Positions 15,171 to 64,000 of a stretch of DNA of 64,000 nt are shown piece after piece. The notes beneath the pieces were generated by a model that was given only the letters and a program-made list of their open reading frames with translations, did not search any database and was not told the origin of the DNA. The DNA is from Psammoneis japonica (lineage: Eukaryota), in assembly GCA_008632985.1 (NCBI GenBank), contig QPGO01000010.1:682001-746000 (forward strand). The letters run 5' to 3'. Position numbers and translations under genes: made by a program. Each line of letters begins with the position of its first letter. Position 1 is the first letter of the stretch.

Positions 15171-15184
15171 AAAACATGTGCTCC

Positions 15185-15700
15185 CTGGGTTTTGTGCAAA
15201 GACTGTGCCCAGCAACTTTCTGTGCCAAACAGCTCTTTTTGTGAAACCAGCACCATGCCCCACATCTTTCAGGTGAAACCTGTGCCCCACAGCTTTTTGC
15301 ATGGTGCAGCTTCTGAGTGAAACCTCTGCCCCACAGTTTTTTGCACCCCATGGCTTTTTTTGTGAAACCTGCACAGAAAAGCTGGGGGGAGGGGGGGACA
15401 GGTTTCACACAAAAGCTTTAGGATCCAGAAAGCTGTGGGGCATGCAAAAAGCTGGGGGATGCAGGTCTTGCACAAAAGATGTGGGGTGTGGAATGCCACA
15501 GGGAGCACAGAAAGCTGTGGGGTGCAGGTCTCACCCAAAAGATGCAGGGTGCAAAAAGGTGGGGGCACAGAAAGCTGTGGGGTGTGAGTTTTGCACAAAA
15601 GCCATGGGTGCAGAAAGCTGCAGGGCCCAGGATTTGCAAAAAAGCTGTGGTGCACAGAGAAAGCTGCAGGGGGCACATGTCTCTGGAAAATGTTGTTGCC
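15185..15700. repeat. Foldback-like array of short units in inverted orientation around a G-run
   Basis: Left units gtgaaacctgtgccccacagctttttg, right units cagaaagctgtggggtgcaggtctcac, centre gctggggggagggggggacagg (about 15381-15402). Confidence 0.75.
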
Positions 15701-21700: not shown

Positions 21701-22242
21701 CAGGTGCTGAAAATCTGGCAAATGGTGAGTTGATGCATCATCTCTGCACACAACATGGAGTCACAAAAACAGGCGCAGCAGCACGTCAGCAGCAGCACAA
21801 AACTCAACTCACCACCATTCGCTAACAACCCCCTTTAAAACCCCAAACAAAAGGCAGCACAACAAGCCTGCTGTTGCAGTGGGACTCAAAATGATGATTG
21901 TTCAGACACCTCATCTGCTGCTGCATCAATGTCATCGTCTGCTCCGGCGGTTTTTTGAGAAGCTCTCTCCATCTCCACGTCAGCGTTTTGGCAAGAGTCA
22001 GGTTTCCAGGGTGACAGAAGTGTGTGGTCAGGAGCAAAACGGCACTTGTAATCAGAATGTTCCTGTCCGGCAAACGCCTTTTATGTCAATCAAATCATTG
22101 AATCTGAGATCTGGTGATCACAACCCTGCACTTTTGATGCCAACGGTCTGGCCGACACACCCCGCTTGTATCATACAAGAATCACGCATCATCATCGTTG
22201 TTCATTCCATGTTGTCTGCAGTCTGCACAGAGCTAAGACCTC

Positions 22243-26570: not shown

Positions 26571-26574
26571 CCAC

Positions 26575-26950
26575 TGCACTGTGCTCGAAGAACGAGTGTA
26601 AACGAAAGTATAACGAAGTTCAAAAGGTGAAAATTATGAGAATCATTTCTGCGCAATCATTTTGGGTTTCTCCGAACGGGTTCTCAATGGCCTAAACCTT
26701 TTGCGCTGCTCCTGCAGACAAAAGGCCTTTCGGAGAATGTGATCGTGACGACAGATTGTCCGGGTGCGATTGACATTGACATGAGATGTCAACATCATCG
26801 TACGATCGCATTTGCGATTCTCGACATCCAATCACTTCTGTGTGACTGATCTGTACTTCATGCGAACCCACGATTGACGTGCGATTGAAACACACTTTTG
26901 TTGATGTACAGACACACATGCATGACACGCACATGACAACGCATGTTGCA
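26575..26950 (-). repeat. 3' LTR (376 bp)
   Basis: Direct repeat of 31368-31746. Confidence 0.95.
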
Positions 26951-26962
26951 TTCGCCTCCCTA
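26951..26962 (-). other. Polypurine tract of the Gypsy element
   Basis: Minus strand reads tagggaggcgaa immediately before the 3' LTR. Confidence 0.8.
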
Positions 26963-26974
26963 ATTGCACATTAG

Positions 26975-29900
26975 AGTCAGTCGTTAAACGGCGTTGTTCG
27001 ACGAATGTTGACAGTGTCAACAACGTCACCGCGTTTGATCTGTGCTGTGCCATTGGCATGTGCCGTTGTCATTGCGCACGGTCCAACATGGGGCTGTTCT
27101 AATTTTTGCGAGTCTTTCTCGAGCAGTGTCTTTTCTCCTGCTCTGCACGTGCAAGGAGTGCGTCGAGCACTCTCTCGAGCGTTGTTTTTATTTGTGATTT
27201 CTTGTTTTGCTGCTGGATTGGTTTCCAGTCCGCGACATGTTGGACGTTAAATGTCATGTCTCTGTTGAAGACTGGTTGTCCTGGTGCAGCTTGCGCAGTG
27301 GCATGACATGCAGAACGCGCCGCAAATGCTGCTGCTGACAGCATTCCAGCGAAAGGATCCTCAGCATCTAGAGGTGCATGTTGCAAATCAAATGTACGGA
27401 GCATGTTCCCCAGTGCTTGATGTGCGCGTTCAATGACTGCGTTTGCTTGTGGATTTCGTGCAGTTGTGGGCTTGACTTTAATGCCATGATCATCTTGCAC
27501 CATTTCTCTAAATTGGTGTCCGATGAACTCACTTCCACGGTCACATGTAATTAACGATGGCCAAGGACATCTACTTGGCCATGTTCGTTCTAGTGGTCCA
27601 GCTACAGTTGTGGACTCCTTATTTGGGATTTCCACAACTTCAAACCATCCGGTTGCTGGATCGATCATAGTTAAACATTTCAGGACTAGGGGTTTTTTCT
27701 TTCCCTTACGACGTATTTTGTATGGCCCAATAAGGTCCACACATAGTCGTTCCCATGGTACGGATTCTGCGCACTTAGGAGGTAAATGTCCATATTTCTT
27801 GTGTTTCTTTTTGAATTTTTGGCACGTCTCACATCTCGACACGTATTTTCGTATGTCTTCACGTAAGGTGGACCACCATAGGTGTTGTGAGATTGTTTCT
27901 TCTGTTCGATTTATGCCAGGGTGAAGAAGGTACGTATGATACCAATCTATCACTGCCTTTTGTAACGTCCTCGGGACGACAATTTTATCCTTATGACATA
28001 TGAGCAACCGGTCTCGCTCGCCTCCACGAAAAGTCTTCGTATGAAACGTCTTATTTGACAATTGGGAGAGAATGTCTTTATCCCGTTTTTGTTCATAATC
28101 AAGAACTTTGTAATTTAACGGAAAGACATTGTCGTAGGATTTTGGTAGGACCTTTTCAGCTAACTCTTCTGTGCTGAGGGTTTCCATAGGTTCTATTTTT
28201 TTCATAGTAAGTCGGCTAATCGCGTCTGCGACAATATTTGCCTTGCCCTCAAGGTATATTATTTTGGGACTGTATTCCTCTATTATTAGACGCCAACGCA
28301 TGACTCTGTCCGTTGTGAAATTTTTGTGTGTGAGATTTTTGTGATCCGTATATATATTTATCTGTTGGCCAAACAGTATATTTCGGAACTCTTTTAACGT
28401 CTCCACTATGGACAATAGCTCTTTTTCCGTTGTAGTATAACGCGTCTGCGCTCCATTCAGCTTGCGGCTGTAGAAGGCAATTGGTCGGTTTTTCTGAGTA
28501 ATAACCGCCCCCAATTGAGAATTACTAGCATCGGTATATATCTCAAAGGGTATATTAAAATTCGGGTATGATAATAGTATATCTTTAGAGATGATGCGCT
28601 TCATATTTTCGAAGGCTTTTTGTTCTGTTTCGGTCCATTGCCACTTTACTTGGGTAGAAGTGAGTTTGGCTAAAGGAGCTAAAACATGAGATCGTCGAGG
28701 CCACATGTCTCGATAGTAGTTGATCACACCGATAAAGCGTCGCAATTCCTTGCGAGTTTTAGGAGTTGCGATCGCGTGAATCGCTTCCACTTTTTTTGGA
28801 ATCGGACTGATGCCCTTGCGGGTGATATGAAAGCCTAGATAGTCTACTTCGGGTTTAGCGAAAAAGGACTTCTCGGCGTTGACTTTCAATCCGGCTTGTT
28901 CTAGGCGTAAGAACACCGTTTCAAGCTTCTTGAGGTGGTCTTGAAAATCACTTTTTGCAAGACACAATGTGTCGTCAATGTAAGTTCTGACGAACTCCAG
29001 ACCTGCCATGAGCTCACTCATGTGCTCTTGGAAAATATCTGGAGCTCCACAGATCCCCATCGGGAGTCTACAGTACTCACATTTGCCCCAAGGCATGACG
29101 ATCGTGCACAAGCGACGTGCATGCGGCGTCAATTCGACATGACAGCACCCCATGTTTAAATCTAGGGACGTTGCATGCATGAAGCCTTCAAGCTTCTGTA
29201 GCATATCCTGAATATTGGGCAGAGGAAACGGAGTGCGAATTAACCTCTTATTTAGCTCACGAAAGTCGGATAAGAACCGAACTCTACCATTTTTCTTGGG
29301 TTGAACAAAGGTTGGAGCCGCCCATTCAGAACAATTTATTTTTCTTAAGACTTTCAACTTGCATGGTCTTTCAACCTCTTTACGAGCAGTCGCCTCCAAG
29401 GCTTGTGGTACGGGAAATGGTTTGGCATGATACGGACTCACGCCCGATTTCAACTTTAAATCCACCGGTTTCCCGGTCCATTTGCCCAGAGAACCATCGA
29501 AAAGGTTTTCAAATCTTTTTAAGAGGAAGTTCAGCTGCTTCTGCTCTTCAGGGGTTAGATGAGTAGCTGCTGCGGTCACATTATTGAGGTTTGCAGCGTG
29601 ATGGTCTGAGTCAAGGATCCGATTGACCCTGTCATTAAGACTGATCACTGCATGAGATTCCTCAATGTGATCGGCAATCAACTTAAAAACATCGGCATCG
29701 AAGAGTGCATCAACATTCTTCATAGGAGTAGTTGCATCTTCCCACTTAATTTCTTCATTCGAGAAGTCCAATGTTGTCCCAAGACTTGACATTAAGTCGC
29801 GTCCCATGATCACATCATAACGACTCGAAGAAGAAGGGGAGTTGTCAACATGTGCCGTTGTTTCAATCATCTTGTGTTTGTCAAATTCGGGTGAGGAGAA

Positions 29901-30176
29901 TTGGATCTTACATCGACTGTCAGTCGTGAAGAGCCCTCCTTTGGTTTCCCAGAGTTTGGTGGCGGATGCTTTTGTTCTGAGTTTCCGCGTGAATTTGCGC
30001 AAAATTATGGTTGACGATGTTCCGCCATCGAGGAGAACGCGTAGAGGCTCATTTTTCGCCTTGCCCAATGAAGCACTCATGCAGGCGACGACCACTGGAC
30101 TAGCATGAATTACTTTGGCCCTTTTTCTGGGCTTCCTAATGTCCAGTAGAGCGCAAGACTCCTCTTGCGGTGCAAG
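26975..30176 (-). CDS. pol: Gypsy pol (protease, RT, RNase H, integrase); frameshift near 27210 in the integrase C-terminus; partly hypermutated
   Basis: LLDGG protease; SDFRELN and YIDD (RT); YTDAS and YTDHKNL (RNase H); HPG..CETC, VDLIGP, DRGSEF, NAVIERAH (IN). The tail KLEQPHVGPC...NGT...VNIRRTTPF lies in a shifted frame. Confidence 0.93.
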
Positions 30177-31331
30177 TCATTCCTCAGAATCACTGCGCGT
30201 CATTTTTTCAAACTGACAATTTTCCTCGTCAAGGGCATCAGAATCACAATCTTTGCTCTTGTGTTTTTTGTCATTGTTCGAAGAACTCGCTTTGAGCATT
30301 TTTTGAACTGCTTGGATCGCCATAGCATTCAACTCTTCTTTGCGAGCGGCGTTGTCATTATCGCGACGAGACCACGTGCGATTGCCATTTGAACGGCGCC
30401 GTTTTGGGTCGGGTTCATAGTTCCCACGGCGTTCTTTCGCAAGTCTTTTGATCGACCAGCACTTGTCCGTGTTGTGAGTGGATTTCTCGCACAAAATGCA
30501 CCACTTCTCGGACTGAGATTTTTCGGTGCCATGTTGGTGACCATTTTTGGAACCACGTTGGGAACCACTCTTGGCTTTTGATGCAGTGCCGCCACTGCCA
30601 TCAGCCTTGGCATGAATGCCATCAAATGTGTCTTCTGCGACCTCCAGGCGCTCCAAGAACTCAACCAACTCGTCACAGGTATGCTTCAAAATTTCGAAAC
30701 CCTGGACGGTCGACTGACGCTGCCACTTTCGAGGTGCAAGGTTGAAGAGGATGTCCTTGAGCTCGTCGTCCTCGATCTTCTGTTCCTTCCCAAAGGGAGG
30801 ATAGAACTTGAGGTCTTCGTTGACTTCCTGGACCCAAGCAGCAATTTCGCGTACTTTCATGGACTCCGGCTTCTTGAGATCACGACGCAAATAACGTTTC
30901 TGCACCGAAAGTGCGTTCTTGGGAAACACATGCCTCGTGAGATGTTGCAGGCATTTCTCGAAGCTTCCTTCCGCAGATTCGTCTTCAAGGTTCGCTGCCG
31001 CATTCTCGAAAGCACGTAGGGCGTCTCCTTGGAGTAACACACGCATGAGACGAAACTCATCAGATTGCTTCCTGACACTCTGGCCCACTGGAAGTTGATC
31101 GTAGCTCTTGAGAAATTCGATGAACTTGGGGACACCTTGTTTCTTGCAGTGCTCAACATTGATGGTGTAGGTACGGCTATCCTTCTTCTCGGGATGAAAA
31201 CGTTGCTCCATCTTGAGGCACTGACTCGGTTTGAGGCTCTTCGGCTCGGAGTTCGATTCCAGCGGTTGAGGGACGATTTTCTCCTGCCTTGACGAAGTTT
31301 TGGCGTTGGTTGCATGAGGTGAAAGCTTCAT
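30177..31331 (-). CDS. gag: Gypsy gag with a CCHC zinc knuckle
   Basis: QKRYLRRDLKKP and ELVEFLERLE; CILCEKSTHNTDKC matches CX2CX4HX4C. ATG at 31331. Confidence 0.9.
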   Translation of the reverse strand: MKLSPHATNAKTSSRQEKIVPQPLESNSEPKSLKPSQCLKMEQRFHPEKKDSRTYTINVEHCKKQGVPKFIEFLKSYDQLPVGQSVRKQSDEFRLMRVLLQGDALRAFENAAANLEDESAEGSFEKCLQHLTRHVFPKNALSVQKRYLRRDLKKPESMKVREIAAWVQEVNEDLKFYPPFGKEQKIEDDELKDILFNLAPRKWQRQSTVQGFEILKHTCDELVEFLERLEVAEDTFDGIHAKADGSGGTASKAKSGSQRGSKNGHQHGTEKSQSEKWCILCEKSTHNTDKCWSIKRLAKERRGNYEPDPKRRRSNGNRTWSRRDNDNAARKEELNAMAIQAVQKMLKASSSNNDKKHKSKDCDSDALDEENCQFEKMTRSDSEE

Positions 31332-31367
31332 CTTGAACTTATTACCTTCTGTGGTGTGTATACACAA

Positions 31368-31746
31368 TGCACCATGCTCGAAGAACGAGTGTAAACGAAA
31401 GTATAACGAAGTTCAAAAGGTGAAAATTATGAGAATTATTTCTGCGCAATCATTTTGGGTTTCTCCGAACGGGTTCTCAATGGCCTAAACCTTTTGCACT
31501 GCTCCTACAGACAAAAGGCCTTTCGGAGAATATGATCGTGACGACAGATTGTCCGGATACGATTGACATTGACACACAAGATGTCAACATCATCGTACGA
31601 TCGCATTTGCGATTCTCGACATCCAATCACTTCTGTGTGACTGATCTGTGCTTCGTACGAACCCACGATTGACGTACGATTGAAATGTACTTTTATTTAA
31701 CATATAGATGTGCACATGTAATACGTACATGACAACGCACATTGCA
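31368..31746 (-). repeat. 5' LTR (379 bp)
   Basis: Direct repeat of 26575-26950. Confidence 0.95.
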
Positions 31747-34464: not shown

Positions 34465-34957
34465 TCACAACAATGTTGTTAGCATTGTTTGCGAAGTAGC
34501 ACTAGTTTCCACTATGCCAGAAGAGTCTAACTAGTTGCTAATAACGTCACGAATGTTTTTGCAACACCAACACGACTTCCTGGTTTCTCGGTGGACGACA
34601 CAGATTCCTTCATACTTTGGCTCGTGAAATTGACAGTCCTGTTCTAAAGGATATATCACAGTATTAGGACCAACTCTATTATAGGTAGGTACCGTATGCA
34701 TTTTTTATTTTACGGTCAGACCTCGCCGAGGACCACAACACGCAGAATAACCGAAGTTCGTGACTGTTCGATTCTGTTCCCGCAGATGAACATCGCCGAT
34801 CGCCGAGCGAGCTCCAACCAGCGGACGGCGACATGATGCCGACGCTGCCGACACATCATTTTGCTATTGTACGGTTGGAAACTGAACTTGGTCGAAGTCG
34901 GCTCTTTAGCATACTTCTCTTACTTCTCCTTCCAGGTATTGTCTCTGGAGGGTCTCA

Positions 34958-35794
34958 ATGCTTGCTACAGTCTTTCTGAAATCACCCCGTACTTTGCTGT
35001 TTCTGCTCTTAACTGCGGCTGCAATGGTCAATGTGTCGAATTCACTCTCGGCGAACGCTGACAAAGCTACCGCTGATCGCTTGGCGACTTGGGATCAGAG
35101 ATGGAGCAACGATAGAACTGGTTGGCATATAGAAGATGTCCACAAGCATCTTCAACAACACGGTGGCAGCATCATTCCCAATATCGACCGTGAAGAAAAG
35201 GAAACTTCTGAAGGAGTGAGAGTGTTTGTACCGCTCTGTGGAAAGACGGTTGACATGGCTTTCTTGGCTCAGAACAGTGGCGTCAGCGAAGTTGTTGGCA
35301 TTGATGGTATTCAAAAAGCACTCGACGAGTTCATTGCACTCAACCCTTCGCTCAACATCAAAGAATCTCAAGAATGTAATGATGACGGGTTCAGTCGCTT
35401 CACCGGAGACAAAATCACGCTACTCCGAGGAGACTTCTTCCTCATGGACAAGGCATCGGTTGAAAAGTTTGACGCCATTTGGGATCGGGCTTCTATTGTT
35501 GCGATTGAACCCGATTTGCGGGAGGACTATGTGCGAATCTTGGGCCATCTACTCAAACCCGGCGGCACTCTGCTAGTTTCAACTTTAGATAAGAGGGAGT
35601 TACCTCCCGAGGCCAGGGCCGGTGGACCTCCGTATTCTGTGCCCGAGTCGGAAATTCGTAGGCTTTACGAAGCACTGGAATGGGTTGAGTCCGTCACCCC
35701 TGTTTCCGATAATGAAGCTGATGAGAAGCTGGGAATTGGACCCAGCGTTCGCGAGGTTGCCTTTGTGATCAAAACAAAGAAGAGCGTTCCGTGA
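34958..35794 (+). CDS. TPMT: Thiopurine S-methyltransferase (TPMT)-family SAM methyltransferase with a hydrophobic N-terminal extension
   Basis: WDQRW...GWH, RVFVPLCGKTVDMAFLA, VVGID, GDFF, FDAIWDRASIVAI, GPPYSV. Confidence 0.93.
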   Translation: MLATVFLKSPRTLLFLLLTAAAMVNVSNSLSANADKATADRLATWDQRWSNDRTGWHIEDVHKHLQQHGGSIIPNIDREEKETSEGVRVFVPLCGKTVDMAFLAQNSGVSEVVGIDGIQKALDEFIALNPSLNIKESQECNDDGFSRFTGDKITLLRGDFFLMDKASVEKFDAIWDRASIVAIEPDLREDYVRILGHLLKPGGTLLVSTLDKRELPPEARAGGPPYSVPESEIRRLYEALEWVESVTPVSDNEADEKLGIGPSVREVAFVIKTKKSVP

Positions 35795-50249: not shown

Positions 50250-53200
50250 CAGCATGGTGACATGAAACATGCACTGGTTGATGCCTGATGCCGGCCAAGC
50301 TGTTTTTCCTGACGTTGCGTTTGACAGCTGCTCTCTGGAAAAAGGGAGAGATTTTCATTCCCACTGACAATTGGGTGCACTTGTGGCTGGAAACTCGGAG
50401 TGTCTTTCTTGTTCTTGCTTTTCTGTTGACTGCAGTTGCGTCCTTTCGACAGAGCTTGGGGCAAACACTGGCAAAGATCCAACTGCAGCTTGCTCTGGAA
50501 GGTGGTGCATCTGGTGTAGACTTGTCAGCAACATGGCCCAAACCCGAAGGAAAGAGAACAAGGTTTCCTGCGAGCATGTGGTGGGTTGTGAAATGGTTTT
50601 TTGAATGAAACGGGTGCATCCTGTTCCAACTTGCTTCTAGATTCAGCAGCAGTCAGGCAACCAAACAACGTTGTGGAATCAAATGAGGATGAGGACAAAA
50701 CAGCAGAGACTGTGGAGCAAAGCTGAGAAGCAACATTGGATGGAGGAGCTTTTCATTCTGCATGAATTCCAGCTCCATCAATCATGTGGGTCTTAGATTC
50801 GACAGCAGAAGACTCAACACCACAACAGCATAAAATGGAGGAATCATTGTGGGTGGAAGTGGGCTGGTGGATGAAATGAAAACATTGGACACTGCATCTG
50901 CAGGAAGATGCAGTGGATCCAACAACAAACGAAATGGGCAACTCGCCAAACAGCGATTCTTTCACATTGCCCCATCCTTTGTTTTTGGCCCACAACAAAA
51001 GATGCAATGTTCAGCATTTCAGAACTTGCCCACAGGCTTTCACCATTTCATTCCATGCTTCTTGTCACAAAGAAGCCAGAGTGATCATGATGCAACTGTG
51101 AGCATTGCCATGTGTCTAGCTGGTTGCAGCAGCCACGAGATTCTCATTGCAGACATTTGGCGCCCCAGATGTGTGCATTCTAAATTTCAGCTGTCTCAAG
51201 CATTGAACTTGCAGTGTTGTTTTTGACAGTGGGAATGTCTCAAGCAGCAGTGTCAATGGTGGATGTCTTGAGCAGGACACCAGCATCTTTGTCATTGACA
51301 GCAGGTGTCTCAAGCACTTTGCTCTTTGCTGCTGTGGCAATGTTGCAGTCATGCAATCTCACAGATTGGTGCATTCTGCTGGCTTTCTTGAAACTGAAGT
51401 GAGGCACACTCAACGGACACAAAAAGTGTGAACTTCTCCTCCAAAACACAAACACTGCCCTCTGTTTCTTGATGGTCCAAACAGGCTTGTCCTCAGAAAA
51501 TGGAGACTTTTTGGTGAAAAAGTGAGTCGCACTTGGCCTTTGAATTTTCAACACAAAACACAAACTTCAGCTCTTGACATGTGGGTGTGGAGAGTGCCAA
51601 GAAAACCAGAAACATGGAATCAGTCATCTCCAATTCCGCGCATTTGGAAACTGCAATTGCACTTGTCCAAAGGTCTCGTGATGACACCCAAGAAGCAGCC
51701 ACACAGTCTCCCTTTTTCAAAGAATAGAAACAAAGAATCTCAAAGCTGTGGTGGGCATGCTCCTTTTTGGTGATACAGTGTCCATTCTCATTGCACTCCA
51801 ATGGGCAAATGTCAATGCCTCTGGGGTTTTGTGTGGCTGATTTGTGTTTTTGCAACTGGTGCGCAAGGTGGAACCGGCTGGGTCACCCTGACAGGGATTG
51901 CTCGCTGCCCCACCCAAAGCCGTCATTGCCACCAAGGGCTTGGAAGCAGGTGCAGGAACTTTGGAAGCTGTGGATGGTGTGATGGATTTCCAACCCAGAG
52001 GAGCAGGCAGTGGGCCATGAGGGTCCAGCTCTGCCAGAATTGATGAAACAATCTCTCGCGCATTTGGTGCAAAACACCTTTCCTCCCACAAAAGTTCTGT
52101 CTTGATCTTCTTGGCCGTGCACACATTCATGGCTTTCTTTTTGAGTTCTTCCTCTTGTTGCTGTTCAGAAAGGTCCCGTTTCCTTTCCTGGACAGCCGCT
52201 GCTGCTTCTGGGTTGTCCTTCTTTTGACTTGCAGCAACCTGCTGGGCTCTTTGCCTCTTGGTGCGTTGCGCTGATGCCGCTCCTTTAAGAAATCCTTTTG
52301 CAGAGCTCATCTTGGCAACATGGATTGTCCTGTCCATGACACTTGTGCAATGACTCAATGGCAACTTGAACATTTCTGGTGGATGCAGCTGCTGCAGCAT
52401 GGCAGCAAACTTCACTGCAACAGGTGACAAAGAAATGGCAGAGGAAGACCATTGGTGGAGCGGCAGTTGTGGGGTGGAAGTGACACTTCCACTGGCAGGC
52501 TCTTGAGCATTTCCAGATCCACTTTTCTGGAAAATCTTGGTTGGGGACTTTTCAGCAGTTGGAGAAGAATTTTGTTGTGGAGACCATTGTGGTTGAGGCA
52601 TGATTTGTTGACAATGGGTCTGATTCGTTGAAGAACAATCCTTTGAACTGCCAATTGAACTGCCTGTTGCTGATGCTGTTGAAGCTGCATGATCTGCTGT
52701 TGCTGCTGTTGAAGTTGCATCTGCAACATGCATTGCTGCTGGGATGTTGCTCCAGGAGCTGCTGGCACTTGAGACTTCCATTGCATGGAAATGATGCCAA
52801 GTTTCTCCCAGAGAAACCACAACTTAAAGATGGCAGTTGCATCATCATTGGATCTCCCGGTGCATTCATTGGTGCAGGGTTGGATTTGTGGGCAAGTTCA
52901 GCATGTTTGGTGGCATGGACATTCCCTGATGCTGCATTCCTGAACCAGCAGAAGAGCGTCCCTTCTTCACATTTTTTAAGAAAATAACAACAATTGCTTT
53001 CACCAACAATCTTTGTGCTCTTGTGCTTTGCACCATTGCTTGAAACACAAACTCCACACAGCAAACACCAAAACATTCTTCTCTCATTGCAGCCAGGCTT
53101 TTGTGCTGTTCTTGGGCATTCATCTGCCACCCCACAATCCTCGTTTGTTTTGCACAAGAAAACAAATGTGAGAGTGATCCACCACCCATGTGGAAATGAC

Positions 53201-56200
53201 CCTCTCCACTGCCCCCCCCCCCACATGCCAGCTGGGAGAATCAGAAGCCTGGCACAAGCAGGATTGAAGATCAAGAGTCATGACTGCCAGAGAGACAGAC
53301 AGCAAAAGAGAAACAACACATCCATTTCCACGACCGACACCACACAATTGTCCACTTGCAAAGCCAACCAAACATTGAACCTCAAACAATTGACAGACCA
53401 GGAGGTTGCTCAGAGCATGAGCAGGACAGCAAACCAAGAGGTCGGCCAGGATGACACCAGAGTGCACTCCTGTTGGGAGGTCTTCCAGACCTTGCCCAGT
53501 CCAAGACGGAATCAGGTGGGTGACAGGAATGGCGCCAATTCTGCAGCAGCAAGTCACCAGGGAGCAGCCAAGGTGGCAACTGACAATGGCTCCAAGCAGT
53601 GCAAACCCCCACAGTGGGAGCTTGCAACATGGGCAGGGTTGGGGCACAATGCACGAATGGAACCTGAGATGCTTGACCTCCCAGAAGAGTCAATGGATCC
53701 ACTCATTTCATTCCCAGCATGCAGAGAAGCCATCTGCACATGGCACTCAGACAAAAGCTTGCGCCATGCTGTGTGGCTTGTTGAGCATCAAGGGATTGCA
53801 TTTTGACTGAAGCAGTTGTCTTGCTCACAATGATGTGTGCAATGGCTGCTCGGTCAACAGCAACGCCGGCACTCTTGTGCACAATTGGCTTGTCAAGCTT
53901 TCCCAAAGCAATCCTAAAAGCAGCCAATGGGTCAGTCTTGTTGTTCACAGAAAAGGTGCAAGGGGCAACTGGCAAAGTTGTTGCCAACAGAGTGGCAGCA
54001 TGGACAGGGGTGTCAACTCGGTGTGAGAGATGCTGGGCCCAGGTGCATCCGCAGCAGGACAAGGTGGCAGCAGCCTTCTTGGGAGCAGCAGAGGCATTGA
54101 AGGCTGGAACATGGGTGGGTTCCAGGGACAAAGTGGCCTGTGTTTGTGACAAATTTGCTTGCCCCAGAACAATGCTGTTGTCAAACGGGCACCATTTGCG
54201 GGGGGCATCTTGCTGGGGGAGAGCAGCCACAGCAGCAGTGGTGTGGTCTCAAGCTGCAGGGATTTAAGGGAAGCCAGAGAGTGGAGGCAATGGCAGGAGA
54301 GGCCATTGCATTGCCTTCAGCGGCAATGGCATCTGCTGCTGGCAGTGGAGGTGTGGCAGGAGGAATCGCAGCACATCCGGCAGCCAACACAGTGGATGCC
54401 AAAGTGGTGGCAGGAGTGCCGGGGGAGGCACCTGCAGTGGCAGCAGTGGGTGGTGGTGACTTGTCATCCTGAGCCAATGTTGGAGGCCAGACAGAGTGGC
54501 CTGCAGGGATGGCATTTGAGTTTTTTTCTATGATGACACCATCTTAGAGTGGGCGCCGTTCGTGGGGGTCATTGTGTGGTGTTTTGTTGCACTCAAAGAA
54601 ATCAAACTGTGCACATGGCAGTTGATGTTGGATCTTTGATGGCACTGCTTGTTGCGTGTAACCGTTTGAGCAAAAAAAGTTGAGCGGCCCACGCGGGCAC
54701 AGATTTTTTTCACTTTTGTGTGTTTCAGAAGGCAAAATCTGCCTCCAGATGGTCATTTGCCATCTCTTGCACTTTTTTAGATGGTTTGAAGCCAACAAAC
54801 CATGCAATGTCATTGGTGCTTGATCTGAAGAACTCTGCAAGCACTTCAAACAAACAAACACATCCACTTGAAGCTTTTCAATCCACTCAAAACATGCTGG
54901 AAAAGGACGAATCAACACGGCGCATCACGCATCATGGTCAAACATTGCACCACTTGCCTTCACCCCAATCATCTCCATTCGACACATGCAACATGGAGAA
55001 GGCATGTAAAAATCTGTTTGGTTGTTGTGATGAACCAATGACTTGCATTCCTGATTGTTGCACAATTGGTGTGCCAAGCCAAACACATCATTTTCAACAG
55101 TCCCATCCAACATTTGCAGGCAAACAGTGCGGCAAAGACTGCGTCAACTGCAACCTGCAATGCATGCTTGATGATTGCACAGAAACCAAAACGTGGATGC
55201 ATTGTGCATCCTGTTTGGACCACATCATGTTGGTGTGGACATTGGATGGAACTTGAGCTCAACTGCGATGACGTCGGGTGAGTCGTCAAGTGGTGGCACA
55301 TCCAGAACAAAATGAACGCGGTGGCTGACATTGGAGCCATGGCAGCAGTGGCTCAATTGTTGCTTGTTTTTGCATTGACAGAACAAACCTGAAGCTGCCG
55401 ATGAACATGCCGAGCAGGTGACAACGACATCTTGGAGGAATGGTTGTGGGAATGTTTTCCAGTGTGCCTTGTGATGCTCCCACCTTGGGCACCTGAGATG
55501 AAGCCAGTTGAGCTGCTGTGGAATTGTCTGGTGGAGCATCTTTTGCCAGCCCCATTTAGATGACTGCCTGTTTTTTTTTGGGTTCGGGTGGCCTGCCACA
55601 CAGCTGCCATCATGCAGTCATTCATGCCAGACGTGGAGACAGCCTGCCATCACTGTGGCTGCCAAGCAGTCTGGAGGTGACTCTGACATTGCAGCATCTG
55701 TGTTTGTTGACACATTGCAGTCTTTGGCCGTTTTTAAAATGCACTCAAGTGTGGTTGCCGGTGGGTGCAGGACAGCAGGATGAAAAGCCCACTTTGGATT
55801 CTCCCAGCTTGTTTCTCCCATTGTTGAATTGTGGCAGCACACCATGTTGCTGGTGCCATTACGGCATGTGCTCCAGCCCGGAGGACTCTCTCTTCCTGCA
55901 ATGGTGGCAGAGGTAGAGGGAATGGAGCTGGGGGTGGCCTGCTGTGGGTTTGTTCCCAATTTTCACCCGCAGTGCTGTTGCAACAGCACAGTCTGTTGCT
56001 GGCATTGTTGTGCATGGCTCTCCAGCCTGCTGCAGAGGAAAGACTGGCTGTGCTGGAGGCAGAGGCAGTGGCGGCTGAGACGGCATTGCACCACCACTGC
56101 AGCAATCCATGGAATCTCATCAGTCAGATCATTGTTGGCTCGGTTCATCCTCCAGTTCATCCTTTCTTGATGTTGTGTTGTTGCGTTTGTCAAGGTCATG

Positions 56201-56800
56201 GCCATCAGATCCAGTGGAATGAGACGTGTCACAACAAAAGACGGCAAATGATTGTCGTGGAGGCAGATTTTGCCTTGAAATGCAAAGTTAAAAAAAATCC
56301 GTGCTCGCATGGCCTGCTCTCAACTTTTTTGCTCAAATGGTTGCACAGATGACACCGCATGCATCAGACCTTGCCAAGAACCACCAACATGCTGGATGAC
56401 CAAAGTTCATGACTGTTCAAATCTGTTTGCAGATGAACATTGCTGATCACCAAGCTCCAACCAGCCTGCTGACCTTGTGCCTCTTGCCAATGTGACACGA
56501 CACTGAACACATTTGGCAGAACAGTGTGGGTGTGTGCGAAGAAACATGCAGAACTTGTGTGGAGTTTTGTGCGTTCAACAGTGATCAACGTTGCTGCAGA
56601 CAACTCCCACTCAGGGTTTCGAAACCCTGGCCTTCTGCCCAATGGCTGCGCAATGAACCACTCCACTGTGAATTCACAACGCAGCATGCATGCAGACAAA
56701 AGGTCACTTTTGTCATGACCTTTGTGACATTTAAAGGCTGCAACACGTCGCCGTGATGCACTGACTCTCACAAGTGGCTGGATGTTGCACTTGTGCCAAC
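50250..56800. repeat. Decayed repeat tract depleted of TpA and CpG
   Basis: Same TG/CA-dominated composition as the other tracts; only degenerate ORFs. Confidence 0.8.
54655..56347. mobile_element. TIR element (~110-bp imperfect TIRs) carrying two decayed WW-domain coding segments
   Basis: gtgtaaccgtttgagcaaaaaaagttgag...ggcaaaatctgcctcca at the left is the reverse complement of tggaggcagattttgcc...ctcaacttttttgctcaaatggttgcac at the right. Minus-strand PPGWSTCRNGTSNMVCCHNSTMGETSWENP and AGWRAMHNNASNRLCCCNSTAGENWE. Confidence 0.75.
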
Positions 56801-56805
56801 ACTGC

Positions 56806-57842
56806 CGCCCAACACATCATTCTGCTCTGCTGTGTGGTTGGCCTCTGAACTTGGTTGAAGTCAGCTCTTTGGCATGCTTTGCTCACTGCTCCTTCCAGGT
56901 GTTGTCTCTGGAGGGTCTCAATGCTTGCCACAGTCTTTCTGAAATCACCTCACACTTTGCTGTTTCTGCTCACAGCTGCAGCTGCAAAGGTCAATGTGTT
57001 GAGTTCACTCTCTGCCAACACCAACAAGGCTGCCATTGATTGCTTGGTGACTTGGGATCAGAGATGGAGCAATGACAGAACTGGCTGGCATGTTGAAGAT
57101 GTCCGCAAGCATCTTCAACAACATGGTGGCAGCATCATTCCCAATGTTGACCATGAAGAAAAGGAAACTTCTGGAGGAGTGAGAGTGTTTGTGCCGCTTG
57201 GTGGAAAGATGGTTGACATGGCTTTCTCAACTCAGAACAGCAGCATCAACAAAGTTGTTGGCATTGATGGCACATTCAAAAAGCACTCGACATGTTCATT
57301 GCACTCAACTCTCTGCTCAACATCAAAGAATCTCAAGAATGCAATGATGATGGATTCAGTCTCTTCACTGGAGACAAGATCACACCGCTCCATGGAGACT
57401 TTTTCCTCATGGACAAGGCATCGGTTGAAAAGTTTGATGCCATTTGGGATCGGGCTTCTGTTGTTGCAATTGAACCCGATTTGCAGGAGGACCATGTGCA
57501 AATCTTGGGCCATCCACTCAAACCTGGCGGCACTCTGCCAGTCTCAACTTCAGACAAGAGGGAGTTGCCTCCCAAGGCCAGGGCCGGTGGACCTCCGCAT
57601 TCTGTGTCTGAGTCAGAAATTTGCAGGCTTTGTGAAGCATTGGAAAGAGTTGAGTCCCCATCACCCCTGTTTCTGACAATGAAGCTGACGAGAAGCTGGG
57701 AATCAGACCCAGCGCTCGCAAGGTTGCCTTTGTGATCAAAACAAAGAACAGTGTTCCGTGAAATGCCAAGACAGTTCTTGGACAATTTGAGATTAAAGAG
57801 ATTTTTTATCACCGCTGTTCCCATCAACTGCATGTCGCAAAA
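56806..57842 (+). pseudogene. Hypermutated, frameshifted DNA-level copy of the TPMT gene and its flanks (parent about 34850-35872)
   Basis: Aligns end to end with the parent, including upstream and 3' sequence. Frameshift near 57271. Substitutions concentrate at TpA and CpG. Confidence 0.97.
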
Positions 57843-57889
57843 CTCAGAAAAGTTGAGCAGCTTTTGCACTTGATCTGAGAATGCATGGC

Positions 57890-59528
57890 GTGGTGCAATG
57901 TCAGAAGCAGGACCGTGAATTGTCGTGGGCATTGACAGCATTGGCTTCTTGGTGCAATGGCCATGTGGGGACTGTCCATTTGTTTGTTCTCGGGAAATGC
58001 TTGCCCCTCCAACAACAAGAACAACGTCTGCAAGATTGTGGTGGGTGGCAGACATTGAAACATTCATGCCCACATCACATGGGTCTGAATCAGGGGCTGC
58101 AAGAACCACTGAGCAATTTCCAATTCTTTCCTCTCAAATCTTTTGCTCCTTTGCAGCTGCTGTTGAGTCTTTTGCAATGTCTTCAATGGTTTTCTGTGTT
58201 GCATTTTGAGTTGTCACAAGCAAATCTTTGGTGGCCGCAGGGTCAGATGCACCTGCCGTTCATTGAGTGTCTTGCCAAGAGGACTGACACATCCACATTT
58301 TGTGATTTGCTGTGCTGAAATGGTCCATCAATTTCCAACAGAGGTTGGCAGACATGCTTGCATGACAGACCTCAAGGGACCTGAGACATTGCCTGAGCCA
58401 TGGCCTTGATTTCAGCAGGTGCAACCAACACCTCTGGGGCATCTGCATTGGCAGCTTCTCTCCTTTGTGCTTTTTGTTGTTGTTGGCTGCACACCTCGAG
58501 ACTCCCTTGAGGTCTGTTGAAAATGGAAATGTTGCATCCTTTGCAGCATCAACTGCGAAGGCGTTCTTAGTGTGCTGATGCCCTGTGTGGGCCAAAACAA
58601 CCATTCAAAGCGAAACCCATGCACTGACAAGAAACAGGCCCTGTTTTAATGGAGTGCTCAAAAGACAAGCCAGCATCCATGCAACCAGTGTGCTCAACAG
58701 CCAACTTGTCACCCAAAACAATGGCAGCTCTCCATCTGACAACAACAACTCTCAACAACTCTTGAATTCCCCCTTTTTCGCTGACTCAAACAACTGTTGA
58801 ACCTCTGGCTGCGGCATTTGACAATGGCTTGACAACAATTTTGATGACACCCATGGTTGACAGTTCCCCAGAAAGATGAGAGGCTGGGGTCCACTCAGTT
58901 TTGTTGAGGTGCTTCTTGTCAACAATGGATGGCATTGTGGCATGCTGTTGCAATGCTGCATTCTTGGACAAAGGTGTAGAAAGGTTTCTGCACAAGTCGC
59001 AGCTCAGAACTTGAGTGGCACAATGGTTTGAACTGTTGTTGTGCTCCTTGATTTCTTTCAACAAGCAAAGTGAAACCAACAGGGAGGGGGGGTTGACAGG
59101 TTTCAACCAATCAGTCTCTGAGTCTGACCACAAAAAGCCCATGATGCAAATGGTTTTGCTGCCTGAAGATTCAATGTGCCTGCCAGTTTTGGCTGTCACA
59201 GCCCATGATTTGTTTTGGAGAACCCACCAGCACACTGCTGTCACAAGGTCTTGTGCCACCTTTGGCTGCACTGGGCAAAAAGAATGACAATCAAGAAATG
59301 TGTGCAAGTTGCAGCACACTTGAGTCTCTCATTCTGCACAGTGTTGGCTTGAAAATCCTGTTGCCTCTGCCAATGGGCTCGATGTCTGTTTTGGATGATG
59401 ACTGCTCTTCCACTTGATGCAACCAACTTGTGTTCATGAGCTTTCAAACCTTTCTGGCTCTGAAAGATCAATTTCCAACCACATTCTTTTTCTTGTTTTC
59501 ACCCATCATTGGCAAGTTTTTTTGCATG
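57890..59528. repeat. ~1.65-kb decayed interspersed repeat, copy 2
   Basis: Collinear with 40810-42457. Confidence 0.92.
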
Positions 59529-59534
59529 AATGTC

Positions 59535-59699
59535 GTTGAACCTGATTTGTGGGAGGACTGTGTGCAAACCCTGGGCCATCTGCTCAAACCTGGCGGCACT
59601 CTGCCAGTTTCAACTTTGGACAAAGGGAGTTGCCTCCTGAGGCCAGGGCAGGTGGACCTCCATGTTCTGTGCCTGAGTTGGAAATTTGCAGGCTTTGTG
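59535..59699 (+). pseudogene. Third, partial TPMT copy (parent about 35505-35670), followed by a re-duplication of 58684-58753
   Basis: ttgaacctgatttgtgggaggactgtgtgc...gagttggaaatttgcaggctttgtg aligns to the parent. Confidence 0.93.
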
Positions 59700-59770
59700 C
59701 AACCAGTGTGCTCAACAGCCAACTTGTCACCCAAAACAATGGCAGCTCTCCATTTGACAACAACAACTCT

Positions 59771-62700
59771 CACTTTTCTACACAAGCACACATCAGTCGT
59801 TTCCACGTGGAATTCTACGAGCTTTTTGTGCCAAGCAGCCGTCACCATGACAACCCCTCCTCCACCGCAGGCTAGCCCCACCGGTGTTCCTCCCCCGGAT
59901 CCTCCCCCCATTGTGGATCACACCCCATTGACTCCAACAAGAACTGGGTCCAAAAAGTCCAACGCGATTGGCCCCAACGAAATCACGATCCGTTTTGAGT
60001 TAACGTCGGCAGAGGATGATGCCTCTACGGTGCCAGCTGTGGGTCACACCACTGTCCTCCATGCCCTGCAACAAAAAGCATCTCAAGATCCTTTGACCCA
60101 CAAAATCTCCATTGTGTCGAATCGAGGAATTGATGTTCCCGATGTCAACGTCGTCGAATGGAATTCTGGACTAACTCATTCGCAACACTTCGTGGTTCAC
60201 TGCGTCGGAGGCACCCGCCGCCGCCCTCCTGCTTGCATCATCGCCCACCGCATCCGCACTGCTTTGACTCTTGCCGAAGTCAGGAATGTTCCCTTTGTTC
60301 ACAAAGTTCTCAAAGATGACGGCATTTACATGCGACGTCATGAATGGGACGAAACCACCGTCGATTTATCTCGTGTTGCCCTTGTTCTCGATTTCGCGCC
60401 AAAGCATTGCCCTGCGGACATTGTTCAGAAACGACTTGTGTCAATTCTACCACCCCGCAGTCGCTCCAAGGTTCCCTTCCGGTTGATTGTTCAATCGGCA
60501 ACATCCCCACTCGACAAGGATGTCAAAGCAACTTTCTGCACAATCGAGACTCCTCGAGACCGAGCCAAAGATGTGATTGCTGCTTTAATGGAAGTGCTGA
60601 AGGATCATCCTTTAGCGGTTGTCTTTACTCGCTGGCGGTGCACCCAACCAGAACAATTCGACAAAGCAGTTCGGAAGCAATGTAAAACCGCAGCGATGCT
60701 CCACGTGATTCCATTGTTGCACTACACTGATGGAATGCATTTTTGCATGTCTGACAAAATTACAACGATCCCCGGAGCAGTGGACGTCGTTCCAGCAAAG
60801 AAGAAAACCTTGATTCCCCGTTGCAACATTCTCGTGGACAAACTGTACTTTCACAAAGCCAAAGAACAAATCACTGAAAACTCATCGGAATGGACAAACG
60901 ATCTTCCGGATGATGAGCTGCCATTTGTTCACCAACCACGTCCTGTGATTCCGGGTCTCAACGACGACATCTCCGATGCAGCTCAGTCCATTGCCTCGGC
61001 GACCATCCAAAGCTGGAAGTCGTCAGACATTTCTGACATCTCGCCTTCTGACTCCCATGCTGCCAAACCTGCTCCACAGCCACCCCCCCCACCGGTTCCA
61101 CGAAACGTCGGGATTCACGGAGGTTTTCAGACCTTTGCCCAAGTGCTGGAAAGTTCCACAAGCGCGGCAGTGCCAAGAGCAACCCCAACTTCAGAGTTGA
61201 CATCTCGGACTGACGACATCGCAGAACTCAAACAAATGGTCTTACAGCACCATCAGGAACAGGATCGTCGGTTAGAGCAGCTAGAACAGCAACATCAGGC
61301 ATCTCTTGAGCAACTTGCATCAAAGTTTCAATCTCTGATTCAAGAAACAATTTCAACCATGTCTCAAGGTGCAGCATCTCCTCAGAGGAAGAAACCTGCA
61401 CTTTCCGCTCCGGCAGGGTCTTCATCTCATCATCCTCCCAACGACACCACTGTGGACGACGCCGAACAAGATGACTCGGTTTTTTCCTGGGGCAGGACCA
61501 GTCGTCTCACCTGCCTGGCTCCCATGACGCACACGCCAGTCGCACTTCTCAGTCTTTCTTCGAGAAAGCACGGCATCACACCCGGGGGTGATGCCCCTTC
61601 GGCAGCACTTAATCCCGCTGCTCAGCAGTGGTCCCAGATGTTGTCAGGCAGAAGTTTTGCACCTCTCTCCAGCACCATTGATCACACTGCTTTGCAACAG
61701 AATGACCCGATTGGAGATCAGTTAGGCCCTAAATCTCCTGAACATGCACGATTGCACGCGTTCAACGCAAACGGATGCGCTCATGACCTCCAAGGCGGCG
61801 ACTTCAATGCATGTTCTCAAGTCGCTGTGGAAGCACAGGCAGATGTCGTTGGAATGTCCGAAACTTGCTTGGACACTGCGCAGTTCAAAGTCCGACAGAG
61901 TTGCTCCAATGCAGTTCGCCAGTCTCTTCATCATGGCCGTTTGACGTTGTCATCCTCCAAGACCACCTTTTCTGCTCCTTACAAACCAGGGGGTGCCGCC
62001 TCATTTTCATGCAATTCCCTGTCTTCACGTTGCCGTACCCAACATGAGGATCCCCCTGGAAGATGGTCCATTCAAATTTTCGATGGACGCCACGGACGGC
62101 AAGTGATGTTTGTGTCTTGTTGTCGAGTTTGCTCCAACTCTTCGGTTGCAGGAAAAACAACAGCTTGTGCTCAACAGGTGGCACTGCTGCGACAACAAGG
62201 GCGAGCGAACCCAGACCCAAGACGATCCTTTTGCACTGACCTGACTCGGATCTTAGAGAGGTTTCTCGATGACACCGACCGAGAGGTCACTCTGTTCGGA
62301 GACTTCAGTGCAGACTTCCGAACTGATGACGACACCCTTGCTTCCATGGCGCAACGGTTCAACATGTCTGATGCAATGTGTTGCCATCAAGAAGACCTTG
62401 AATTTTCCACTTGCATGAGAGGATCTCGTCGGTTAGACTTCGTTTTGGCAACCCCAGGGGCTTTGGCAGCCTCTAGAAAGTGTGGGTGCGAATCTTTCGG
62501 ATGTCGCATGTCTTCGGATCACCGAGCATGTTTTGTCGATTTTGACACAGTGGCATTGTTTGGCAACCCTGCCGTCGACCTGCCACGTGCCAAACACCGT
62601 GACCCAAGCAAATTCTCCCAAACACATCACTGCATGCCTGGAGACAATGGCTTCACTGTCGCACAGCCAAAACGTTACGGTGCGAACCGAAGCCTTGATC

Positions 62701-64000
62701 CAGTCCTCGACTCCAGACCACAGACTCGCAGAGAGACTTGATCGGGACATCCCACAGTTTTCCATGTCGTCTGCAAAGCATTGCCGATGACATGAAGAAC
62801 CAGCATGGTCTGTTAAACTGGCTGGTCTCCGTCGACAGATTTTCGCATTGTCCAGGATGATGTTGATGTTTCGTGCCAAGGTCGACATGGTGCCTTCGAT
62901 TCTACGTGCTAAGTTTGACCTCAAAGATTCCTCCATTCTCCCAATTGCCCTGCAGGAATGTGCGATTGCTCTACGAAAAGCTCAGTCAGAGTGCCGTCAG
63001 GCAGCACGCGAAAGTCAGCAACATCGAGACGAAGAACGAGATGCCTGCATTGCTGAACTCGAACTGGATGGTGCCAAACAATCGAAGGCCACTGCACGAA
63101 TTTTACGGAATCAATGTTGTGCGGAAGAAACTGAGAGGGCATTCAGGAAGATCAATGCATGCAAGAGAGCGGAAGGAGCCAGCATCCGAACCATTCAGAT
63201 TCCTGAAGATCCCAGAGATGATCCCAAAACATGCGAGAATTGGATGACGATCGATGCTCCAGACGATGTGGAATCAGCTCTCCAACACAGAAACCAACGG
63301 CACTTCGGCCAGGCACAAGGCACTCCCCCCACAGTTCCACCTCTGTCAGTCGACTTGGGCCATGAAGGTGACACAGTGATGGCGGATCTAATCCTAGACG
63401 GAGAACACGAAACCAGTCACCTGAACCGTGCTGCTTCGTCATTGATGCAACACCTTCGACGAAGGACTCCATCAGCAGTTTCAAATTCTCTCACCCCAGA
63501 GGCACTTCGCTCAAAGACAAAACTGTGGTCAGAGTCAACGTCTGCCTCCTTGAAGTCAGGGCTGCATTTGGGACACTGGAAAGCCATGCATGCTCCACAC
63601 TCCCATTCCAATGATTGTGATGAAGACGGCATCCCTTCAGATCGGAAAGAGTTGTCAGACTCAGTTCAGCAGTCACTGGTGTCTGTGCGACTCAATCTGA
63701 TCAACTGCGCACTAAAGTGGGGATGCTCACACAAACGGTGGAAGGACATGGTCAATGTTGTGATCTTCAAAGAACCAGGCAACAACAAAATACACCGACT
63801 GCGAGTGATCCACATTTACGAGGCAGACTTTCAACTCATCACAAGCGTGAAGTGGCGTGAGTTAGCCCAGCACATGGAACATCATCGAATGCACAATCCC
63901 GGCATTTGCGGATGTCGCTCCTTCCTCTCTGCTCAAACTCCTGTGTTTCTCGAAAACATGATGCTGGAGACATCGCGCGCCTCACGGAAAACCTTGCTCA
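59771..64000 (+). mobile_element. Non-LTR retrotransposon (LINE), possibly of the diatom Ambal-like clade. ORF1 from ATG 59847; ORF2 with an APE endonuclease (about 61730-62560) and the start of RT running off the window. Frameshift near 62615 and TGA at 62788-62790.
   Basis: APE motifs FNANG, ADVVGMSET, GRWS, LFGDFS, RGSRRLDF, SDHR. Downstream RNQRHFGQAQGTP, WSESTS...SGLHLGH, RWKDMVNVVIFKEPGNNKIHRLRVIHIYEAD. Confidence 0.9.

Follow-up and report, generated by a model that had tools for sequence, protein, structure and literature searches.

In a 64,000-base window of the Psammoneis japonica genome (contig QPGO01000010.1, positions 682,001 to 746,000), a long interspersed nuclear element (LINE) that runs off the right end of the window (59773..64000, forward strand) was found to have lost most of its TpA dinucleotides and to have retained most of its CpG. 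We consider it likely that this LINE copy, dead as judged from its sequence, was attacked by a host mutator which reads the bases flanking TpA, and that this attack is followed by a slower decay of CpG. Comparisons within the window give the process a direction (TA to CA or TG) and a dinucleotide specificity, place it on both strands and after integration, put TpA loss before CpG loss and reveal a hierarchy of flanking bases. All positions given below are those of the window.

The composition of the element was compared with that of the rest of the window, which was scored in 128 bins of 500 bases for the observed/expected ratio (O/E) of TA and CG. Positions 59771-64000 (4230 bases) contain 39 TA (O/E 0.16) versus 225 CG (O/E 0.82), with CA and TG at O/E 1.37 and 1.41. 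At the ratios of the undepleted bins of the window (TA 0.66, CG 1.00) about 164 TA and 277 CG would be expected, which corresponds to a loss of about 76% of TA against about 19% of CG, to survivals of 0.24 and 0.81 and to a loss-rate ratio of about 7. The original prediction had described the element as rich in CpG, citing cgtcgtcg and cgccgccg (present near 60150 and 60216), and as encoding nearly tyrosine-free proteins, and both descriptions hold: Tyr makes up 6 of 1368 residues (5 of 964 in the open reading frame 59847-62738 and 1 of 403 in the frame 62791-63999), encoded each time by TAC and never by TAT, while the frames contain 2.9-3.0% Cys and 4.0-5.0% His. The surviving TA are, as had been noticed, mostly YTAR or YTAC (34 of 39; Y, pyrimidine; R, purine; N, any base), with 19 YTAR, 15 YTAC, 3 GTAN, 1 ATAN and 1 NTAT, so that ATA and TAT are indeed almost absent. 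The density of TAA plus TAG in the LINE is 6.5 per kb, versus 15-30 in undepleted DNA.

The element is the 5' 4.2 kb of a multi-copy LINE of the AP-endonuclease/reverse-transcriptase type. Its start is marked by a step in CpG O/E from 0.04-0.43 to about 1.1 at 59.5-60.0 kb, and the 75 bases that end at 59772 (59698-59772) are not part of it, being an older nested repeat with other copies at 58680-58754 and 41602-41676. A long open frame (59847..62741, forward strand, 964 codons plus TGA) matches no family over its N-terminal 600 residues and carries at its C-terminal end a degraded AP-type endonuclease domain (61761..62522, forward strand; Pfam Exo_endo_phos), which in the endonuclease segment scores E 2.2e-4 and 21.5 bits, under the cut-off of 24.5. 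The second frame (62791..63999, forward strand, 403 codons, open at the window end) differs from that of the endonuclease, is preceded by a TGA at 62788 and appears to comprise a linker followed by the beginning of a reverse transcriptase; it aligns with residues 533-791 of protein P0001 (BLASTP E 6e-11) and reaches into the RVT_1 domain of that protein (residues 716-943), the domain continuing past the window end. Pfam searches with both whole frames gave no family at E <= 0.01, and a word-indexed protein search with the endonuclease region gave one match. An exhaustive HMMER search was needed to find relatives and, with the segment 61620-62738, retrieved 2104 of them at E <= 0.001 (best 8.8e-55, 37% identity), the long ones having Exo_endo_phos followed by RVT_1 and one of these also zf-RVT; a metagenome scan for close relatives of the endonuclease gave 124 pattern matches, none of which was confirmed. 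Contigs from a public sequencing run that contains the stretch (X1, one of three runs; 0.59 of the sampled words) reach a summed depth of 200-400 over the LINE versus about 65 for single-copy DNA, with many transition variants; as X1 may be the sample behind the assembly, it offers agreement, not independent support. Most conserved endonuclease columns are kept, and the invariant Asn of the GDFN motif reads Ser (AGT). Because the two domains are out of frame, the GDFN Asn is Ser and conserved Tyr are gone, this LINE copy is dead. In one X1 contig, with a depth of 30 and a short side of 23 bases, 133 bases are skipped and 62575 is directly followed by 62709; by arithmetic this skip would put the endonuclease in the frame of 62791-63999, in which the TGA at 62788 follows a CGA codon.

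The paucity of TA and Tyr does not seem to be native to the LINE family. The 150 best relatives have medians of 2.9% Tyr, 1.8% Cys and 3.7% His, whereas Tyr and Cys amount to 0.5% and 5.1% of the query segment. At the seven alignment columns with at least 30% Tyr among 79 relatives, the LINE copy reads Cys three times, Phe twice (TTC), His once and Tyr once (TAC), and its codons at four of them are TGT (a column with 99% Tyr), TGC (83%), TGC (77%) and CAC (60%). Three peptides had been put forward as places where Tyr was replaced. For two of these the alignment agrees, since the second Cys of VSCCRVC (TGT, 62121) stands in the column with 99% Tyr and the Cys of STCMRGS (TGC, 62412) in that with 83%; the third, HRACF, does contain Cys but is a weak example, as its column holds only 21% Tyr among the 79 relatives. 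Other copies of the LINE point the same way. For the X1 contigs, 40 of the 234 places that differ from the window over 20 kb were shown, 23 of them inside the LINE, and among these 23 other copies keep TA where the window has TG or CA at 60409, 60538, 60745 and 61321, the reverse occurs at 60027 and 60448, three differences are CA-against-TG discordances, and CG is kept in other copies where the window has TG or CA at seven places, with one place the other way round. These copy-specific states imply that the LINE copies lost TA and CG independently of each other, and we take the TpA loss of the element to be mutational.

Which TA are lost depends on their flanks, and the predicted preference TAT > TAC > TAR was recovered in the LINE. 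Sites were scored with strands pooled by the base 3' of the A, as the ratio of survivors to an NTAN baseline taken from 17 kb of undepleted bins of the same window, which is host genic DNA and not the element's own ancestor. The ratios in the LINE are 0.006 for T, 0.047 for C, 0.070 for G and 0.098 for A (chi-square P = 9e-6; T versus C, P = 8e-4), and the ten site classes together differ from the baseline (chi-square P = 2e-5), which speaks against an equal loss of all NTAN contexts. A pyrimidine 5' of the T is found at 35 of the 39 LINE survivors versus 326 of 725 baseline sites (P = 2e-8). In the doubly depleted bins (28.5 kb) the ratios are 0.039 for T, 0.040 for C, 0.15 for G and 0.34 for A (chi-square P = 4e-26), T and C being equally exhausted in these older blocks and G more depleted than A. 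When each context was instead normalised by its own total of TA, CA and TG, survival in the LINE was 0-0.13 in every ATAN, GTAN and NTAT context and 0.26-0.78 in CTAG, CTAC, CTAA, TTAC, TTAA and TTAG; in the old blocks TA survival ranged from 0 to 0.51, with TTAA at 0.51, TTAG at 0.21, CTAA at 0.16 and CTAG at 0.10. The strand attacked follows the flank as well, RTAR sites having become CA eight times and TG once and YTAY sites TG eleven times and CA five times (Fisher P = 0.011), which fits a preference for TAY on the attacked strand and is the opposite of what a preference at position -2 would give. CpG survival in the old blocks, on the other hand, spans only 0.09-0.23 over the ten NCGN classes (about 2.5-fold), from 0.09-0.11 in the CGA/TCG classes to 0.23 in CCGG, and CpG loss is thus far less flank-dependent than TpA loss.

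The direction of the changes could be read from a duplicate of a host gene. An intact TPMT gene (34910..35794, forward strand; Pfam TPMT E 1.9e-43) is the unmutated partner of a degenerate copy with flanks (56364..57841, forward strand; Pfam TPMT E 2.4e-8), which has 87-88% identity to 34716-35873. When the two are aligned, the 35 TA of the intact gene are represented in the copy by 16 CA, 15 TG, 2 TA, 1 TT and 1 CG, and its 57 CG by 20 CA, 20 TG, 14 CG and 3 others, while 62 of 63 CA and 70 of 78 TG are unchanged. Between the two copies TA loss is one-sided at 31:0 and CpG loss at 40:2; part of this one-sidedness could stem from selection on the working copy. The alignment therefore indicates that TA and CG were both driven to CA/TG, on both strands and in one copy only, at a TA-to-CpG loss ratio of about 2.

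The timing follows from a Ty3/gypsy element (26572..31746, reverse strand; Pfam reverse transcriptase, RNase H and integrase) with long terminal repeats (LTRs) at 26572-26950 and 31365-31746 that are 90.5% identical. The 36 differing bases of the pair consist of 14 with TA against CA or TG, 18 in nine CA-against-TG discordances, 2 at CpG and 2 others, the last over some 380 aligned bases. Of 30 TA sites, 22 are gone from the left LTR and 10 from the right, against 1 of 25 CpG in each (P = 8e-8 and 0.008), giving a TA-to-CpG loss ratio above 10 and a TpA rate that is far above background, a statement which the small LTR counts keep qualitative. As the LTRs of one element are identical at integration and these differ nearly only at TA, the TpA changes arose in chromosomal DNA after integration. 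The open pol frame (27099-30176, reverse strand, 1025 codons), for which the best match has 60% identity among metagenome proteins, reads Cys or His at 10 of 30 columns that hold at least 60% Tyr in 60 relatives. These losses form two end runs, with five at 29603-29081 and four at 27569-27128, and a single one (His) lies at 28328; between the end runs (29075-27629) Tyr is kept in 14 of 18 such columns. The TA O/E of the element is 0.14-0.45 at its ends and 0.8-0.9 in its centre, so that it stands part-way through TpA loss with its CpG intact, and the match of this profile with the Tyr losses argues that the mutation comes in tracts. In such a genome, LTR identity would badly overestimate the age of the gypsy element.

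Over the whole window TA and CG are both low in 57 of the 128 bins and both normal in 34; TA is low with CpG mid or normal in 24 (CpG is normal in 10 of these, 8 of which lie within the LINE), and no bin has TA normal or mid with CpG low. Together with the gypsy LTRs this bears out the proposal that TpA is lost faster than CpG and that the two losses can be separated. TA O/E follows CG O/E (Spearman rho 0.84) and runs opposite to CA+TG (rho -0.87; 128 bins each). In total 81 bins are TA-low. The undepleted bins coincide with recognisable genes, namely those of a PT-repeat protein, a zf-C2HC5 protein, a proteasome subunit and TPMT, and genic bins have dinucleotide frequencies of 0.043 for TA and 0.143 for CA+TG. 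Boundaries are sharp, TA O/E rising at 43.5 kb from 0.00 (43001-43500) to 0.92 (43501-44000), and they match biological units, that is genes, LTRs and element ends. The largest doubly depleted block (6800..21900; TA O/E 0-0.16, CG 0-0.47) holds no recognisable protein family. An older block directly upstream of the LINE (50300..59772; TA O/E 0-0.15, CpG 0.04-0.5) contains the TPMT copy, the copy at 57891-59529 of a repeat at 40809-42457, and a third TPMT fragment (59536-59696). DNA at single-copy depth is depleted too, since 50.0-53.3 kb (depth 66-87) has a TA O/E of still 0.03-0.23; TpA loss is therefore not dependent on copy number.

Over the 20 kb compared, 216 of the 234 differences between the X1 contigs and the window are transitions. 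In the single-copy region 46.5-52.9 kb, 8 of the 9 differences shown are TA or CG against CA or TG, in both directions, and all 9 sit in depleted or transitional bins, with none in the undepleted gene block at 47.5-50.0 kb. These differences hint that both processes are still running, and could also be alleles or strain differences.

We propose that the mutator would turn the A:T pair of 5'-TA-3' into G:C, leaving TpG or CpA according to the strand struck, and that it would act on both strands of chromosomal DNA within sharply bounded domains of transposons, old repeats and a stray host-gene copy. TA with a pyrimidine after the A, which equals a purine before the T, would go first, TAG later and TAA last, so that YTAR sites would survive longest. 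A second process, for which deamination of methylated cytosine is the most likely candidate, would remove CpG from these same domains; per site it would be 7 to 30 times slower, and its sensitivity to flanks would be much lower. The LINE would then be a fairly young insertion for which the first phase has passed and the second has barely begun. Its inactivation would have come about through changes such as Tyr to Cys or His, with the frames staying open. By the genetic code, no stop codon can arise in any frame from a change of TA to CA or TG, and such a change erases TAA and TAG, which makes open frames weak evidence of function; neither the 964-codon frame of the LINE nor the open gypsy pol is thus a sign of activity. 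The agent may be an enzyme, which would either deaminate adenine in the manner of ADAT2/TadA or modify thymine, and silent chromatin may be its target. That single-copy DNA is struck, that the working TPMT gene is spared and that the boundaries are sharp would argue against duplication as the trigger and for a cue of position or chromatin. A foreign origin of the target would fit the LINE and the gypsy element, but the host TPMT copy was struck as hard, and none of the 34 frames tested in depleted blocks could be assigned. Put together, these elements form a more specific reading that we advance tentatively, at a little below even confidence: an enzyme system that reads T-A-Y (order at +1 of T >= C > G > A) would take sharply bounded silent domains as its target, regardless of whether these contain repeats or foreign DNA, would strike new insertions in tracts before 1% neutral change has accumulated, would precede CpG decay and be mechanistically distinct from it, and would kill elements without ever introducing a stop codon.

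Several points weigh against this interpretation of the LINE. The baseline for the flank scores derives from host genic bins and not from the ancestors of the mutated DNA, and in the oldest blocks some surviving TA may be new, having arisen by C-to-T or G-to-A changes at CA or TG. The LINE has a strand asymmetry, YTAC surviving at 15 of 127 sites versus 1 of 84 for its reverse complement GTAR (P = 0.003), which accounts for the many YTAC among the LINE survivors; neither the baseline nor the old blocks show this asymmetry, and a DNA process that treats both strands alike would not predict it. In aligned pairs, which are near saturation and small in number, YTAR was retained no better (3 of 13) than RTAY (6 of 23). 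With 40 of the 234 differing places shown, the TA loss of the LINE cannot be apportioned between this locus and its progenitor. The enzyme, the DNA modification and the chromatin state are all things that we infer. Finally, the mutation-accumulation lines of the alga Bigelowiella natans, considered below, showed no CpG component, and the link between TpA and CpG loss comes from the window alone.

Among other explanations, the base attacked could be the thymine: a TET/JBP-type enzyme would mark the T of TpA in silenced DNA as 5-hydroxymethyl- or 5-formyl-uracil, the mark would mispair with G and cause T-to-C changes, and CpG decay would be separate. Sequence cannot tell which base was attacked, "A then pyrimidine" being the same as "T after purine", and 5-formyluracil mispairs with G. 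A precedent is provided by dinoflagellates, in which 5-hydroxymethyluracil (5hmU) replaces T preferentially in TA and TC through a TET/JBP enzyme and silences transposons (PMC11572971). That preference includes TC, which is not mutated in the window, and 5hmU in P. japonica is a supposition; we regard this explanation as unlikely, though it carries some weight. A single deaminase of dual specificity, acting efficiently on A at TpA and weakly on C at CpG so that CpG loss would owe nothing to methylation, would account for the sharp domains shared by both losses (Spearman 0.84, 128 bins). The amphioxus ADAT2 (BjADAT2) is described as deaminating both A (in GAA) and C (TCG preferred) in DNA (PMC10354150), and CpG survival in the window is lowest in the CGA/TCG classes. 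Against it stand the merely 2.5-fold or so flank effect at CpG, the variable factor by which TA loss exceeds CpG loss (about 2 in the TPMT copy, about 7 in the LINE and above 10 in the LTRs), the absence of CpG mutations from the TpA bursts in the B. natans lines, and the context GAA, not TA, in which BjADAT2 deaminates A; we think one such enzyme quite improbable.

Editing of LINE RNA by an ADAR-like enzyme and fixation by reverse transcription would suit a retrotransposon target and the strand asymmetry of the LINE, and ADARs favour U before the edited A, as quoted in the B. natans preprint (10.64898/2026.01.13.699255). Both products are present, though, with TGY three times and CAY once at the Tyr columns, RTA is nearly gone, and the same signature separates the LTRs and marks the TPMT copy with its flanks and single-copy non-coding DNA. 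ADARs prefer a 3' G, which differs from the order T >= C > G > A found here, and RNA editing accordingly strikes us as very improbable indeed. Scarcely more credible is a LINE family for which low TpA and Tyr are the native state, owing to codon habit, avoidance of UpA in RNA or long adaptation to the mutator, in which case the copy in the window would have lost little. In its favour, a family exposed to the mutator would be expected to rid itself of dispensable TA, and the nearest database relatives are only 37% identical. The median of 2.9% Tyr in relatives contradicts such native poverty, as do the columns with 99%, 83%, 77% and 60% Tyr that read TGT, TGC, TGC and CAC, the loss of the catalytic Asn and of a common frame, and the TA held by other copies at 60409, 60538, 60745 and 61321. 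A sequencing or assembly artefact has practically no probability, since X1 contigs follow the window across depleted as well as undepleted DNA, with 0-6 differences per 0.4-5.9 kb, and the pattern is bounded by genes, LTRs and element ends. Repeat-induced point mutation (RIP) was rejected, given that TpA falls, CpA and TpG rise and one copy of the duplicate is mutated (31:0 and 40:2); APOBEC-type C-to-T editing and general UpA avoidance were likewise rejected, and so was a genome-wide mutation bias, the genic bins and the gypsy centre keeping a TA O/E of 0.6-0.9 and a CG O/E of about 1.0. A flank-reading TpA mutator with slower CpG decay remains the explanation that we favour.

Further features of the window are as follows. 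The left end (1-6140) is occupied by a PT-repeat frame of 1715 codons that runs off the window (Pfam PT-repeat E 1.4e-48); it contains tandem repeats with units of about 108-216 bases and 63-86% identity, is overlain by long antisense frames, has a GC content of 58% and shows a normal TA O/E apart from 501-1500. An undepleted block with host genes (22452-24614) encodes the zf-C2HC5 protein and the proteasome subunit; the Pfam match of the latter is limited to the C-terminal part of the profile, which suggests introns. TAA plus TAG occur at 2.3-2.6 per kb in depleted blocks versus the 15-30 of undepleted DNA, about ten times less often than in genic DNA, and the depleted blocks (e.g. 6800-21900, 37600-43500 and 50300-59772) carry many frames of 150-370 codons on both strands, often overlapping. 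No Pfam match was obtained among the 34 frames of at least 150 amino acids tested in these blocks, and gene finders would over-call there. Upstream of the LINE, nested low-copy duplications link 40809-42457 with 57891-59529 and, for a TPMT-derived sequence, 35505-35666 with 57470-57634 and 59536-59696. The two copies of the former, 1.6-kb repeat differ by 43 CA-against-TG discordant dinucleotides, which are the footprint of the same TA or CG having been lost independently in each copy. At 56000-57340 the summed depth of X1 contigs is 9,000-25,000 versus about 65 for single-copy DNA, most sharply around 56562-56770, where loose contig ends cluster, one of them resembling the T-arm end of a tRNA; this suggests a short element of very high copy number, possibly similar to a short interspersed nuclear element (SINE). 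ARAGORN and Rfam gave no match in the mutated copy of this putative element in the window, and the tRNA (ARAGORN) and Rfam scans of the window as a whole found nothing.

The core process has already been described in kind, in an unreviewed 2026 preprint on two viral inserts of B. natans. Of the 302 nuclear mutations in mutation-accumulation lines of this alga, 231 were located in inserts of a giant virus and a virophage. All but one of these (230 of 231) were A-to-G or T-to-C changes, each of them at TpA, and the rate was about 6e-7 per site per generation; for the insert of the giant virus (nucleocytoplasmic large DNA virus, NCLDV) the figure is 210 of 211 mutations at TpA (Mettrop et al., bioRxiv 10.64898/2026.01.13.699255). 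The same source reports 124 TpA-depleted clusters in the 95-Mb genome, finds TpA-depleted coding sequences enriched for the Pfam families Endonuclease-reverse transcriptase, Reverse transcriptase and DDE endonuclease, and proposes an ADAT2-like deaminase as candidate (10.64898/2026.01.13.699255). The window agrees with B. natans in that the transitions are at TpA and yield both products, are locally confined and arise far faster than the background, and its genic bins (TA 0.043, CA+TG 0.143) are near the B. natans coding values (0.041 and 0.137), which is not diagnostic. Where B. natans has viral inserts as targets, the window has two retrotransposons (the LINE and the gypsy element), a copy of a host gene and non-coding DNA at single-copy depth, and the extent differs, with 81 of 128 window bins TA-low versus 124 clusters in 95 Mb. 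The main text of the preprint makes no mention of CpG, context, flank, trinucleotide, neighbour or retrotransposon, although its figures or supplements may show a motif; our literature search found no other report of TpA hypermutation at the DNA level.

Targeted hypermutation of selfish DNA in eukaryotes is known mainly from fungal RIP, which runs from GC to AT. The window resembles RIP in a dinucleotide-preferring transition hypermutation that inactivates chromosomal transposons. RIP is C-to-T mainly at CpA and raises TpA (PMC2621366), whereas here TpA falls and CpA and TpG rise, one copy of a duplicate is struck and single-copy DNA is struck as well. The decay of CpG in methylated repeats has its likeness in the CpG-to-TpG/CpA changes of the older blocks, with their weak flank dependence; it would explain the second, slower phase only and neither the TpA loss nor the state of the LINE. 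Clustered deaminase-type transitions with a neighbour preference also recall ADAR and APOBEC editing of animal retroelements. ADAR and APOBEC work on RNA or on cDNA that has not yet integrated and leave their mark on a single strand, unlike the window, in which both strands of integrated DNA are marked and in another context. The natural tRNA substrate of ADAT2/TadA deaminases has U33 before A34, which would fit a TpA rule. Both A-to-I and C-to-U deamination of DNA can come from this one family, but the DNA contexts given for BjADAT2 are GAA and TCG, not TAY (PMC10354150).

Relative to what is described for B. natans, the window adds the flank order TAY before TAG before TAA, which any candidate enzyme must reproduce, together with the precedence of TpA loss over CpG decay, the timing after integration, and retrotransposon, host-gene and non-repeat targets. 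It also provides separate support for the signature, obtained by sequence comparison instead of mutation-accumulation lines. In genomes of this kind, a long open frame in TA-poor DNA should not be taken to indicate a gene, and Tyr-poor, Cys- and His-rich "proteins" are the ruins of known families, overlooked by profile searches. If our reading is true and the source is not Bigelowiella natans, an AT-to-GC counterpart of RIP would be more widespread than one alga, and the process would have reshaped most of the non-genic DNA of this genome, far more pervasively than has been reported.

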